IMG/VR virus record: IMGVR_UViG_3300042892_003815
Span: 32,001-96,000 of that record
Direction: 5' to 3' (one strand)
DNA length: 64,000 bases
Source: a virus
The position numbers were made by a program, and so were the translations under genes. Below the pieces are notes generated by a model. That model ran no database searches. It saw only the letters and a program-made list of their open reading frames with translations, and was not told the origin of the DNA. Each line of letters opens with the position of its first letter. Position 1 is the first letter of the stretch. Of this stretch, positions 19,074-57,735 are shown piece by piece.

Positions 19074-19493
19074 TTATGCTACATTTTTTGGTGTCTCTAT
19101 TATAAAGTTTAAATTTTTATCATATATAAATTGACTTACTTTAACTTCCATACCTACCTGTATCATTGTTTTGACTATCTTACCACATTCTGTATCAAGT
19201 ACTTTAGATTTTAAAGTAAGTTTATCAATCTTATTATTATTTATTATAAATGTCATTCCGTTTACAGAGCAACATACTTTTTGTAAGGATATCTGATGAC
19301 TATGCTGATCATCGAGTGTAATATATTTCTGAATATCATCAATATCAAACTGTATTTTTTTACTACCTTCTAAAAGATAGTTTAATTTTATCTCACGATA
19401 AATGGATTTCCACGTTGGATAACTAGAAAGTGCTAAATTATAATCATCAAATTCTAAATCACTACCTAATATGACATCAAATAGATAGTCCAT
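19074..19493 (-). CDS. Degenerate prohead-protease-like (gp21 fold) protein
   Basis: SLQKVCCSV...KVLDTECGKIVKTMIQVGMEVKVS aligns by eye to SLSRASHII...KLLSTYWGKEAKSLVDDGCPVFVSS of the protease at 21963. Confidence 0.45.
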   Translation of the reverse strand: MDYLFDVILGSDLEFDDYNLALSSYPTWKSIYREIKLNYLLEGSKKIQFDIDDIQKYITLDDQHSHQISLQKVCCSVNGMTFIINNNKIDKLTLKSKVLDTECGKIVKTMIQVGMEVKVSQFIYDKNLNFIIETPKNVA

Positions 19494-21376
19494 TAGAACA
19501 ATTCAAAGTCAATTTGTTTTCTATCTAAGTCAACTGCTTTAACAATTACTTTTACTTCATCACCTAATCTTACTGATCCACCTGATTTTAAATTTACTGT
19601 ATAGTTTTCTGCATCTACTTTATGATTTCCATTATATCTAACCATACCTTCACATTTACTTTCAATAAGTTCAACATACATTCCCCAGTCAGTTACTCCT
19701 GATATAATTCCATCAAATACTTGTCCGATTTTATCTTCTAAGAATTCAATTTGTTTATATTTAATAGAGTCTCTCTGTGCCTTTGCTGCTAATATTTCTC
19801 TTTCAGAACACCATTTAGCCATACCTTCAATTTTTTGAGGACTTCCATTAGATTTCTTATTTAAGAAGTCTAATAAGACTCTATGAGTAATTAAATCCGG
19901 ATATCTTCTAATTGGTGAAGTAAAGTGAGAATAGTGAGTAAACCCTAATCCATAGTGTCCAGAGTTTACTATTGTATAACTTGCTTTAGACATACATCTT
20001 GTGATTAAAGTTTCTATCATATTTTCTTCTGGTTTACCTTTTATATCAGCAACTAATTCATTTATAGATTTTTTCAAATCTTGTGTATTTTCAACAACAT
20101 CTAAAGTATAACCAAAGTTTTTACATATTAGAGAAAGTGCTTCTAACTTTTCGACATTAGGAGTACTATGCACTCTATAAACATTGTGATACTTAGCATC
20201 ATAAAGAAGTTTTGCGACTAATTTATTTGCAAGTAACATATATTCTTCAATTAGTTTATTTGCATCTTTCTGTTCTTTGAAGAAAACCCCAATAGGTTTC
20301 TTAGTAGTTGGTTCTAATTTGAATCTAACTTCTATACCACCCATTTCGATAGAACCATCACTAATTCTTTGTTTTCTCATTTTTTTAGCAATAGTATCTA
20401 ATAATAGTATTTCTGTTTTGAAATCTCCTTCTTTACCTTCAATTATCTCTTGTGCTTCTTCATAAGAATATCTTCTATCTGAATGTATAACCGTTTTTCC
20501 AAACCATTTATCTAATAGTTTTCCTTCACTATCTAGTTTAACTATAACTGAGAAGCAAAGCTTATCTTCATTAGGTCTTAATGAACATACACCATTACTC
20601 AACCTTTCTGGTAACATTGGTACACATCTATCAACTAAGTAAACAGAGGTTGCTCTTTTAATAGCTTCTTCATCAATTATACCACCTTCTTTAACATAAT
20701 GTGAAACATCTGCGATATGTATACCTACTTCTACTGTATTATCATCAAGTATATTAACCGAAAGAGCGTCGTCAAAATCTTTGGCGTCAACTGGATCAAT
20801 TGTAAATGTTGTAATATTTCTTAAATCTCGTCTGTTATTGATTTCTGATTCAGGAATTGTAAAGTCTATCAATTCCGCTTCGGCTTCTACCATTAAAGGA
20901 AAGTTGTTTGGTAAACCGTACTCATACATTATTGAGTTCATTTCTGTATTATTGTCACCTGAACTACCAAGTATTTCTACTATTTTTGCTTTAGGCGATT
21001 TTGTTCCTGGTTCCCAGTCAATTAGTTCGACAAGAACTTTTTGATCGTGTGTTGCGTCGTGTTCTCCTTTTATATAAAAGTCAACCGCAATTTTTTGACT
21101 ATCTGGTACTACAAATATAAGTCTTTTATTTTCTTTGTTTATTTGTACCTTACCAACAAATTGAGTCCTAAATCTTTCAAGAACTTCTATAACTTCGGCT
21201 TCAATTTTGTTGTTCTTAGTTATTATTTTAATTTTAACTTTATCACCATTAAGTGAGTTAAGTGTATTTTTCTTAAATATGAAGATATTTTTATCTTCTA
21301 TATTTATAGAGGCATTTCCGCTGTTTGCGAAATCGATAGTGCCTTCAAAAACACTATCTTCTTTAATTTTATTCAT
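19493..21376 (-). CDS. rnr: Ribonuclease R (RNB family exoribonuclease)
   Basis: CSD domains, TIDPVDAKDFDDA active site, HFTSPIRRYPD, C-terminal S1 domain. Confidence 0.95.
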   Translation of the reverse strand: MNKIKEDSVFEGTIDFANSGNASINIEDKNIFIFKKNTLNSLNGDKVKIKIITKNNKIEAEVIEVLERFRTQFVGKVQINKENKRLIFVVPDSQKIAVDFYIKGEHDATHDQKVLVELIDWEPGTKSPKAKIVEILGSSGDNNTEMNSIMYEYGLPNNFPLMVEAEAELIDFTIPESEINNRRDLRNITTFTIDPVDAKDFDDALSVNILDDNTVEVGIHIADVSHYVKEGGIIDEEAIKRATSVYLVDRCVPMLPERLSNGVCSLRPNEDKLCFSVIVKLDSEGKLLDKWFGKTVIHSDRRYSYEEAQEIIEGKEGDFKTEILLLDTIAKKMRKQRISDGSIEMGGIEVRFKLEPTTKKPIGVFFKEQKDANKLIEEYMLLANKLVAKLLYDAKYHNVYRVHSTPNVEKLEALSLICKNFGYTLDVVENTQDLKKSINELVADIKGKPEENMIETLITRCMSKASYTIVNSGHYGLGFTHYSHFTSPIRRYPDLITHRVLLDFLNKKSNGSPQKIEGMAKWCSEREILAAKAQRDSIKYKQIEFLEDKIGQVFDGIISGVTDWGMYVELIESKCEGMVRYNGNHKVDAENYTVNLKSGGSVRLGDEVKVIVKAVDLDRKQIDFELF

Positions 21377-21776
21377 TATTTAATTTTTTTTTGTTTTTAG
21401 AAATGTTATCTACTCCATACTTCTGTACTAATGTTTTCTTCATCTTTTCTAAAACTTTTTTATTCTGTATCGGATAATCAACTCCGAAATTTTTTCTTAA
21501 TGTTTCTTTTCTTTTAACTTCAGAACACCTTCTACAATAATAATCTCCCCAATCATTATCATATTTTAAGTAGTTCTTATAGATTACTTCTTTTTCAATT
21601 CCACAAGTGTCACATTTACACTTGATTTTGTAGTGTGATCCTTTTGGTAGTAATTCAACTGGAATTACAATTTCTTCACTTATATATACATCATATCCTA
21701 AATCATCATAATAGTTGTAATTTGATTCAGTGATTTTCACATTTATCTCTCTTGATAGGATCATAAAAAACCGCAT
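21369..21776 (-). CDS. Zn-ribbon plus K(Y/F)GVD repeat protein (homing-endonuclease-type DNA-binding module, no nuclease domain)
   Basis: CKCDTC, YCRRC, KNFGVDYP and QKYGVDNI repeats. Confidence 0.6.
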   Translation of the reverse strand: MRFFMILSREINVKITESNYNYYDDLGYDVYISEEIVIPVELLPKGSHYKIKCKCDTCGIEKEVIYKNYLKYDNDWGDYYCRRCSEVKRKETLRKNFGVDYPIQNKKVLEKMKKTLVQKYGVDNISKNKKKLNNE

Positions 21777-57015: not shown

Positions 57016-57075
57016 ATCAGTATATATTAAACTTTTACTCTATTTTATAATAAAAACAAAAAATAATACCCATAA

Positions 57076-57735
57076 ATGAAAAACGACTTACAAAAATTTC
57101 TACGAAGTCAATCTATTTCAAGTACCTTTCAAGACAATTACTTTAAACATTTACAACGAAAAAACAGTACTCCTATGTTATTAGAGAGTAATGGTATGTC
57201 TGTTGATGTTTTTTCAAAGTTATTAGAAGATAGGATTATCTTTTTATCTACTGAAGTTGATGAATATGTTACAAACATAATCAAAGCACAACTTCTTTAT
57301 TTAGAATCTGAAAGTGATGAAGACATATCAATTTATATTGATTCACCAGGTGGATCAGTTTATACCGGGTTAGGCTTACTTGATGTAATGGACTTTGTTA
57401 AACCAGACATTGTTACGATCAATACGGGACTAGCTGCTTCAATGGCTGCAGTAATTCTATGTTCTGGTACAAAAGGTAAGAGAATGGCTCTTAAAAGAAG
57501 TAGAACGATGATTCATCAACCATTATCTTATGCTGGTTATCAACAAGCATCGGATTTAGAGATCGAAGTAAAAGAGATAAACTCTTTGAAGAAAGAACTC
57601 TATGAAATAATTTCTGAGAGATCAGGACAAACTTTTGATAGAGTATCTAAAGATGGAGATAGAGATTATTGGATGACTTCACAAGATGCAAAGAAGTACG
57701 GAATTATCGATGAGATAATATTAAAAAGAAAATAA
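57076..57735 (+). CDS. clpP: ATP-dependent Clp protease proteolytic subunit
   Basis: DRIIFL, SPGGSV, AASMAA (Ser), MIHQP (His), RDYWM (Asp). Confidence 0.95.
   Translation: MKNDLQKFLRSQSISSTFQDNYFKHLQRKNSTPMLLESNGMSVDVFSKLLEDRIIFLSTEVDEYVTNIIKAQLLYLESESDEDISIYIDSPGGSVYTGLGLLDVMDFVKPDIVTINTGLAASMAAVILCSGTKGKRMALKRSRTMIHQPLSYAGYQQASDLEIEVKEINSLKKELYEIISERSGQTFDRVSKDGDRDYWMTSQDAKKYGIIDEIILKRK

Follow-up and report, generated by a model that had tools for sequence, protein, structure and literature searches.

We describe a divergent one-piece transfer-messenger RNA (tmRNA, gene ssrA) and its genomic partners in a 64,000-nucleotide stretch of viral DNA (the window), which covers bases 32001-96000 of the IMG/VR record IMGVR_UViG_3300042892_003815, a contig of 190,950 bp in a single piece with 29.5% G+C. 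The RNA runs from its first residue, G1, to the discriminator A at positions 29830..30205 of the window, on the forward strand, and comparative, structural and expression evidence identifies it as a real tmRNA. We favor, with a probability of roughly 0.7, a reading in which the phage has a trans-translation core formed by the tmRNA and SmpB, a linked candidate rescue factor consisting of a stand-alone NFACT-R domain, and a number of accessory genes that were acquired separately. The original prediction, made from the letters of the window, named five elements: ssrA, rnr (RNase R), clpP, NFACT-R and infC (the initiation factor IF3). All five are present. Their grouping into one ribosome rescue and quality-control set holds for the tmRNA, SmpB and the linked NFACT-R protein, but not for RNase R, ClpP and IF3, whose distribution does not support co-inheritance with them.

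A divergent tmRNA with a long tag

Standard detectors miss this gene. ARAGORN makes no tRNA or tmRNA call in the window, in the whole contig, or at the loci of the relatives; when its settings are relaxed, the contig yields spurious permuted calls only, all at other sites. Rfam at the gathering threshold has no match in the window. In a permissive Rfam search, the tmRNA family RF00023 aligns end to end with positions 29830-30208 at 13.9 bits, for a gathering score of 47, and Rfam at E<=0.1 finds no match at the loci of the relatives. The closest deposited relatives of the contig are LR745206 (634,780 bp; W01) and LR756502 (642,428 bp; W02), both described as “uncultured phage”. Both include a counterpart stretch that is 71% identical to the tmRNA, and RF00023 run on the two whole genomes identifies tRNA genes only, and no second tmRNA. 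Using the conserved pattern, we fetched 31 further IMG/VR loci, and 22 distinct full-length tmRNA copies were aligned.

The acceptor stem has 7 basepairs (GGGGAUG/CAUCUCC) and is followed by the discriminator A. The G3.U pair is invariant (22/22 copies), and pair 5 appears as A-U, G-C, C-G or G.U in different copies. The RNAalifold structure for the 22 copies includes the acceptor stem, the T arm, the long-range P2 helix, the stem of the first pseudoknot (PK1), and further hairpins, with a total of 46 pairs, 14 of them compensatory. For a 53-pair structure, 97.4% of the cells are paired, compared to 32-44% when the partners are slid; 16 pairs have changes on both sides, and 0/500 shuffles match any of the observed measures. 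The P2 helix (alignment columns 23-26/363-366, 41-43/349-351 and 44-51/336-342) shows GC-to-AU swaps while remaining 92-100% paired. The T stem has apparently 6 basepairs, three of them compensatory, and closes a GGCAGUU/A loop. After the discriminator the DNA reads CAA, and CCA is absent. The most divergent copy (L053, IMG/VR 3300042559_002797) encodes CCA and has the T-loop AUCGUUA; all other copies have CAA. The unusual T-loop on an apparent 6-basepair stem, the lack of an encoded CCA, and the divergence within an A+T-rich sequence explain why the detectors miss this RNA.

The tag reading frame, with 29 codons and a TAA stop, occupies positions 29929..30018 on the forward strand, and the predicted tag is (A)GNVNQVGTSEDLVACLQNNLISNRDLVVA. 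In the family, the frame has 27-29 codons, it is open in 22/22 copies, and all insertions and deletions are multiples of 3. The tags end in DLVVA, DLVIA, DLVA, DLAVA or E(E/D)(P/L)ATV. A tag of this length is about three times the Bacteroidota norm. The window tag also contains EDLVA, an internal copy of its C-terminal DLVVA, and in the DNA we find the repeats GATTTAGTAG.

An intrinsic terminator (29775..29802, forward strand) closes the peptidase gene that precedes the tmRNA, which makes the tmRNA its own transcription unit. The unit ends at another intrinsic terminator (30216..30239, forward strand). A terminator follows the tmRNA in every copy that has downstream flank, and its stem differs in sequence while the pairing is kept. 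Four metatranscriptomes from four different studies include matches to this region. The sole matching contigs are stand-alone, 343-361 nts in length, fall inside positions 29839-30205, and are 99-100% identical to the window. The depth of these RNA contigs reaches 110, one of them stops exactly at the discriminator base, and the flanking genes are never entered. A sediment metatranscriptome (run X18, record 4) has a second RNA contig in which only 33 nts of the tag region match and the flanks differ, a pattern suggestive of the expression of a further family variant in that sample.

SmpB and the linked NFACT-R protein

In order to report distributions, we use two sets of relatives. The “complete” set (n=4) includes the finished genomes LR745206 and LR756502, and the IMG/VR genomes G013 (97%) and G024 (95%). 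The component survey scores every record with this tmRNA, a total of 31 IMG/VR records, with G013 and G024 among them. The original prediction reported SmpB and ClpX as absent from the window; we agree, and they are also missing from the whole 190,950-bp contig, which CheckV estimates to be about 33% complete. All four complete or near-complete genomes have an SmpB gene, with scores of 167-177 bits; in LR745206 it occupies 332958-333383. In the survey, SmpB appears in just 2/31 records because the gene is far from the tmRNA and the fragments miss it. The 4/4 presence in complete relatives supports the view that this phage lineage has a trans-translation core of its own, tmRNA and SmpB.

The second component of the reading is a protein of 130 residues with a stand-alone NFACT-R domain (26066..26458, forward strand; Pfam NFACT-R_1, 2.8e-14). 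Its leader, MRLKKYKQFNES, is disordered, and its core contains DIWMH...PGSHVV. The AlphaFold2 (AF2) model has a mean confidence (pLDDT) of 85, with residues 1-15 disordered. The best Foldseek matches are RqcH on the 50S subunit (TM scores of 0.74-0.78) and the DNA-binding CCDC25 (0.70-0.74). By sequence, it aligns to residues 441-553 of RqcH (2e-16), and it has 630 metagenomic homologues and belongs to a large metagenomic family of solo proteins with about 129-130 residues. Residues W53, H55 and H63 are invariant in the family. H55, in DIWMH, aligns with the histidine in the DIWFH of CCDC25 (H41), which corresponds to H44 of the yeast protein Jlp2, and the alignment fits the H44/D46/H52 numbering. 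Jlp2 is a solo NFACT-R protein that is reported to hydrolyze peptidyl-tRNA on stalled large subunits in an H44-dependent manner (bioRxiv 10.1101/2025.09.04.673968). In RqcH, the DWH motif, which the phage protein keeps as DIW(M/L)H, is required for binding to the 50S subunit near the A-site finger. Solo NFACT-R proteins have previously been described in eukaryotes only (PMC4075521). Neither Pfam, nor the alignment, nor the AF2 model identifies an NFACT-N, HhH or coiled-coil domain in the 130 residues of the phage protein, and without those domains it cannot be an alanine-tailing RqcH. We also considered the assumption that Bacteroidota hosts lack RqcH and rejected it, as NFACT-R is found in full-length open frames in 153 of 201 sampled Bacteroidota. 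Full-length RqcH is found in none (0/5) of the Flavobacteriales metagenome-assembled genomes that are nearest by ClpP.

The linkage of NFACT-R and the tmRNA holds whichever of the two is taken as the starting point. NFACT-R accompanies the tmRNA in 30/31 records of the survey and in 4/4 complete genomes. Conversely, starting from 74 NFACT-R loci and searching with an nhmmer profile, we find the tmRNA at a distance of 1.9-4.8 kb in 54 of the 55 loci that have enough flank. Across the clade, the genes follow a conserved order: RNase R in the opposite orientation, DUF7487, the prohead protease and capsid genes, NFACT-R, a PepT-like metallopeptidase in one or two copies, the gene of a small acidic protein, the tmRNA, and a NADAR gene. 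L133 and L134, which diverge most among the loci, keep the block formed by NFACT-R, peptidase, small protein and tmRNA, while their upstream neighbors are not head genes. The block is therefore not merely the tail of a head operon. In L134, NFACT-R and the peptidase are separated by an inserted HNH homing endonuclease (L134:6390-7364). In L100, L102 and L108, the segment including the tmRNA, the NADAR gene and the next gene is inverted relative to NFACT-R, such that the tmRNA is on the opposite strand and 3.9-4.8 kb away.

The other genes of the block and its surroundings are as follows, all on the forward strand. Upstream, and reported for context only, are a T4 gp21-like prohead protease (21963-24182; phrog_207 head maturation protease, 6.8e-28) and, directly before NFACT-R, a gp23-like major capsid protein (24271-25992; Gp23, 2.6e-30). 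Downstream of NFACT-R, and conserved in the block according to synteny, there is a PepT-like metallopeptidase of the M20/M28 clan (paralogue a, 26496..27872; phrog_4191 at 2.7e-63, with weak PepT-like and M28 matches). A second copy (paralogue b, 28486..29763; phrog_4191, 1e-52) results from a duplication present only in the subclade of the window. The two paralogues are about 42% identical; most relatives have a single copy, which in L133 and L134 takes a 547-residue form. A protein of 193 residues (27874..28455), the usual upstream neighbor of the tmRNA, combines a leader MIQKYKRFIER, an acidic disordered linker, and an alpha/beta C-terminal domain with an AF2 pLDDT of about 90. For this protein we find no family match, no Foldseek match in the PDB at E<0.001, and no credible relative in an Atlas search. 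Directly after the tmRNA terminator is a gene with a NADAR domain (30256-30765) that matches models of the NADAR anti-phage and ADP-ribose families. It is found after the tmRNA in nearly all relatives, and its product could be a counter-defense enzyme that reverses ADP-ribosylation.

These genes allow a more specific interpretation, one that is possible and that we propose only tentatively. The block from NFACT-R through the metallopeptidase and the acidic protein to the tmRNA would be a viral rescue module with two tracks, in which the tmRNA and SmpB clear non-stop 70S ribosomes, and NFACT-R acts on large subunits as a release factor similar to Jlp2, freeing stuck peptides from their tRNA. 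If true, this would be the first Jlp2-like release factor outside eukaryotes, and the idea that histidine-bearing NFACT-R domains constitute a general class of peptide-release factors would gain support.

A different role for the same proteins, which we consider rather unlikely, is that NFACT-R and the 193-residue acidic protein are internal proteins packaged into the head. A T4-like capsid-targeting leader would direct them there, they would bind nucleic acid in the way CCDC25 binds double-stranded DNA, and their closeness to the tmRNA would be clade synteny. About 18 unrelated proteins in the window start with a motif similar to M-K-x-L-K-x-F-E-x-F (for instance those at 5878, 7578, 11851-, 26066, 27874, 45759- and 55918-) akin to the capsid-targeting sequence of T4. 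Among them are NFACT-R and the 193-residue protein; RNase R, ClpP and IF3 are not. In both proteins the motif is conserved family-wide and disordered in the models. Moreover, in most genomes NFACT-R is the next gene after those of the prohead protease and the major capsid protein, and complexes of CCDC25 with DNA are among its best structural matches. However, the assignment of the leader as a capsid-targeting signal derives from motif likeness, and in L133 and L134 the block persists with no adjoining head genes. RqcH in its 50S-bound form is the closest match both in sequence (38-41% identity) and in structure, and the histidine motif for ribosome docking and catalysis does not vary.

Accessory genes, phage and probable host

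The RNase R core (rnr) is encoded on the reverse strand at 19493..21376. The protein has 627 residues with a CSD1-CSD2-RNB-S1 architecture (RNB at 1.5e-107, together with CSD2 and S1), an intact RNB motif DPVDAKDFDDA, and a score of 636.5 bits for the equivalog TIGR02063, above the cut-off of 597.85. Its alignment to the E. coli-type model, which has 813 positions, covers 106-724, and the protein stops right after S1. According to this model alignment, the phage protein has neither the N-terminal helix-turn-helix (HTH) region nor the C-terminal lysine-rich domain. The lysine-rich domain is essential for the role of RNase R in trans-translation (PMC4176180), and its absence is at odds with the proposal that RNase R serves the phage as the decay arm of trans-translation.

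The ClpP serine protease subunit (57076..57735, forward strand) is of the Bacteroidota type. It matches CLP_protease at 1.2e-66 (224.5 bits vs 20.2), and falls under the NCBIfam equivalog cut-off (262.6 vs 361). Its Ser/His/Asp triad is intact, with AASM, IHQP and DRD aligned to solved ClpP structures. The nearest cellular ClpP proteins, at 52-57% identity, are from Bacteroidota, mostly Flavobacteriales. LR756502 has a third ClpP copy about 3 kb upstream of SmpB. IF3 (infC; 48394..48927, forward strand) has a TTG start and both the N and C domains (IF3_N and IF3_C), and scores 144.4 bits vs 60 for TIGR00168. The gene next to it (48976-50406, forward strand) has only a partial match to family B DNA polymerases, covering profile positions 140-237 of 453, and may encode a polymerase that is split or incomplete. 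The genes for RNase R, ClpP and IF3 are all genuine and probably active.

The distribution of these three genes is independent and patchy. RNase R is found in 23/31 records and in 3/4 complete genomes, ClpP in 7/31 records and 3/4 complete genomes, and IF3 in 6/31 records and none (0/4) of the complete genomes, being confined to the subclade of the window. The slot of RNase R is empty in L043 and L056, and in LR756502 the gene has moved elsewhere. G024 keeps the tmRNA, SmpB, NFACT-R and a ClpC-type unfoldase, and has neither RNase R nor ClpP. The patchy distribution in relatives that the original prediction gave as evidence against a joint system is thus what we see for RNase R, ClpP and IF3, and it is not what we see for the tmRNA, SmpB and NFACT-R.

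Relatives include additional candidate partners. In all four complete genomes there is a ClpC-type unfoldase that lacks an N-domain and has a GVGF loop for docking to ClpP; the copies in different genomes share 85-87% identity. The phage had been said to carry most of the non-ATPase arms of rescue; RNase R and ClpP are indeed present, but the description is incomplete since the relatives encode this unfoldase. Two of the four complete genomes (LR745206 and LR756502) also have a small GGQ protein with an RF-1 domain, closer to domain 3 of RF1 than to ArfB (93 vs 37 bits). Five IMG/VR records were tested for it, and its absence from G013 and G024 is the reason why we do not count it as part of the core. 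In tblastn searches of deposited phages, most matches to RNase R, SmpB or NFACT-R outside huge phages are in short unannotated contigs or in prophage records with rnr and smpB side by side. We judge these matches likely host flanks and do not count them.

With these results, we find it quite improbable that tmRNA, RNase R, ClpP, NFACT-R and IF3 constitute one co-selected rescue and quality-control system, in which the non-stop mRNA is cleared by RNase R and the tagged protein is broken down by ClpP, such that ribosomes are kept working while host defenses cut RNA. The five genes are real and apparently intact, RNase R is about 6 kb from NFACT-R in 23/31 records, the relatives add SmpB, the unfoldase with its GVGF loop and, in two genomes, the GGQ protein, and the hydrophobic end of the tag resembles known degrons. 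But the spread of RNase R, ClpP and IF3 is independent, with RNase R cleanly gone from its slot in two loci and G024 dispensing with both RNase R and ClpP; RNase R lacks the lysine-rich domain; and the genes do not share an operon, being scattered across 38 kb and both strands. The best explanation is that RNase R, ClpP and IF3 are accessories of the kind typical of huge phages, gained and lost separately, and not obligate parts of a module with the tmRNA.

As for the phage itself, the window is best explained as part of a freshwater huge phage, of which the contig represents about one third for a full size of roughly 0.4-0.64 Mb, belonging to the clade of LR745206 and LR756502. Near-identical DNA is found in metagenomes from lake, freshwater, wastewater and estuary samples. 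The hosts are probably Bacteroidota. Huge-phage genomes of more than 634 kb group in the “Mahaphage” clade, with Bacteroidetes as predicted hosts (PMC7162821). LR745206 and LR756502 match this class in size. ARAGORN finds no tRNA genes on the whole 190,950-bp contig. In the complete relatives, short RF00023 matches mark clusters of tRNA genes at about 343-420 kb in LR745206 and about 372-423 kb in LR756502.

Proposed mechanism and comparison with known systems

In the reading that we favor, the tmRNA would be made as a separate unit just after the head-gene cluster, and SmpB would be provided by a distant gene outside the fragment. The tmRNA would be charged with alanine through its G3.U pair, and together with SmpB it would enter ribosomes that have stalled where a broken mRNA ends. 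The next step would be the addition of a tag of about 30 residues with a hydrophobic end (VVA, AVA or ATV), after which the ribosome would terminate and be set free. NFACT-R would most likely bind large subunits or ribosomes holding a stuck peptidyl-tRNA. The alanylation, the tagging, the fate of the tagged proteins and the activity of NFACT-R are all predictions from sequence.

Several observations weigh against this reading. SmpB is not on the contig, about 33% complete as it is. The T-loop is not the canonical UUCRANY, and this odd loop, the T stem of about 6 basepairs, and the failure of both ARAGORN and Rfam make the partnership of the RNA with SmpB, EF-Tu and alanyl-tRNA synthetase a putative one. 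For PK1 we have the first stem only (AUCGG with CCGAU), which never varies and so adds no covariation support, and a simple covariation scan gave no second pseudoknot stems. In the tag frame, changes are only weakly enriched at the third positions of codons (14/12/18 variable codon positions). The RNA contigs are assemblies, from which true RNA ends and abundance cannot be read, and DNA carry-over into RNA libraries is possible. Since the carriers are all from a single phage clade in which the gene order is conserved, the linkage of NFACT-R and tmRNA could reflect inherited synteny rather than function. Finally, a single preprint is the source for the activity of Jlp2, a eukaryotic protein with a C-terminal coiled coil that is missing in the phage protein.

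The first of these RNA features, the non-canonical T-loop missed by ARAGORN and Rfam, together with the precedent of the mycobacteriophage DS6A, whose RNA has a tRNA-like domain only and is thought to be a tmRNA inhibitor (PMC4131195), would also fit an RNA that has lost tmRNA activity (the odd T-loop and the long tag being the traces) and instead titrates host SmpB or EF-Tu in the role of a decoy or regulator, or senses the translation state of the host, but this is very improbable given that the lineage keeps its own full-length, high-scoring SmpB, and that the tag frame, the stop codon and P2 are conserved with compensatory changes across 22 variants, all needless for a mere decoy.

Phage tmRNAs are known in Bxz1-type mycobacteriophages and in Bacillus phage G (PMC4131195), and tmRNA, SmpB, IF1/IF3 and release factors have already been reported in huge phages (PMC7162821). 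Surveys of tmRNAs in phages and huge phages relied on ARAGORN or Rfam, and would not have reported this tmRNA because both miss it. A whole family of expressed phage tmRNAs thus escapes detection, leaving “orphan” SmpB genes behind, and counts of phage trans-translation are too low as a result. The long conserved tag with its unusual C-terminus is a natural variant with which to ask how tagging benefits a phage and which protease reads the tag. The preprint on Jlp2 raises the question of whether NFACT-R domains with this histidine are general release factors, and the phage offers a small test protein from the bacterial world. As a correction, we advise against viewing RNase R, ClpP and IF3 as components of one fixed kit with the tmRNA and NFACT-R.

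Compared to known systems, the phage RNA shares with one-piece SsrA an alanine-type acceptor stem with G3.U and a discriminator A, a T arm, a long P2, a putative PK1 stem upstream of the tag frame, a stop codon, a hydrophobic tag end, SmpB in the genomes of the relatives, and the form of a discrete RNA of about 360-376 nts. Unlike typical SsrA, its T-loop is GGCAGUU/A instead of UUCRANY, on a stem of about 6 basepairs, CCA is mostly unencoded, and the tag has 27-29 codons with an internal EDLVA repeat. The phage NFACT-R protein resembles Jlp2 and CCDC25 in having a solo NFACT-R domain of the same fold, and a W-x-H...H cavity motif with the same 8-residue spacing and the key histidine. It differs from them in having no C-terminal coiled coil and a K in place of D at +2. 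Its sequence is also nearer to that of bacterial RqcH (38-41% identity, compared to 23-26% for CCDC25), and its gene belongs to a bacterial virus; the hydrolase activity is putative. As in RqcH and NEMF, the phage domain keeps the DWH 50S-binding motif, but the protein has none of the NFACT-N, HhH and coiled-coil/M domains, and hence can neither recruit tRNA-Ala nor add tails. With E. coli-type RNase R, the phage enzyme shares the CSD-RNB-S1 core and the RNB motif, and not the HTH region or the lysine-rich tail used for tmRNA-SmpB-dependent decay. Three things are new relative to these systems: a tmRNA variant that is hidden from the detectors and has a long tag, the fixed tie of this RNA to a solo, histidine-bearing NFACT-R protein, and the separability of RNase R, ClpP and IF3 from both.

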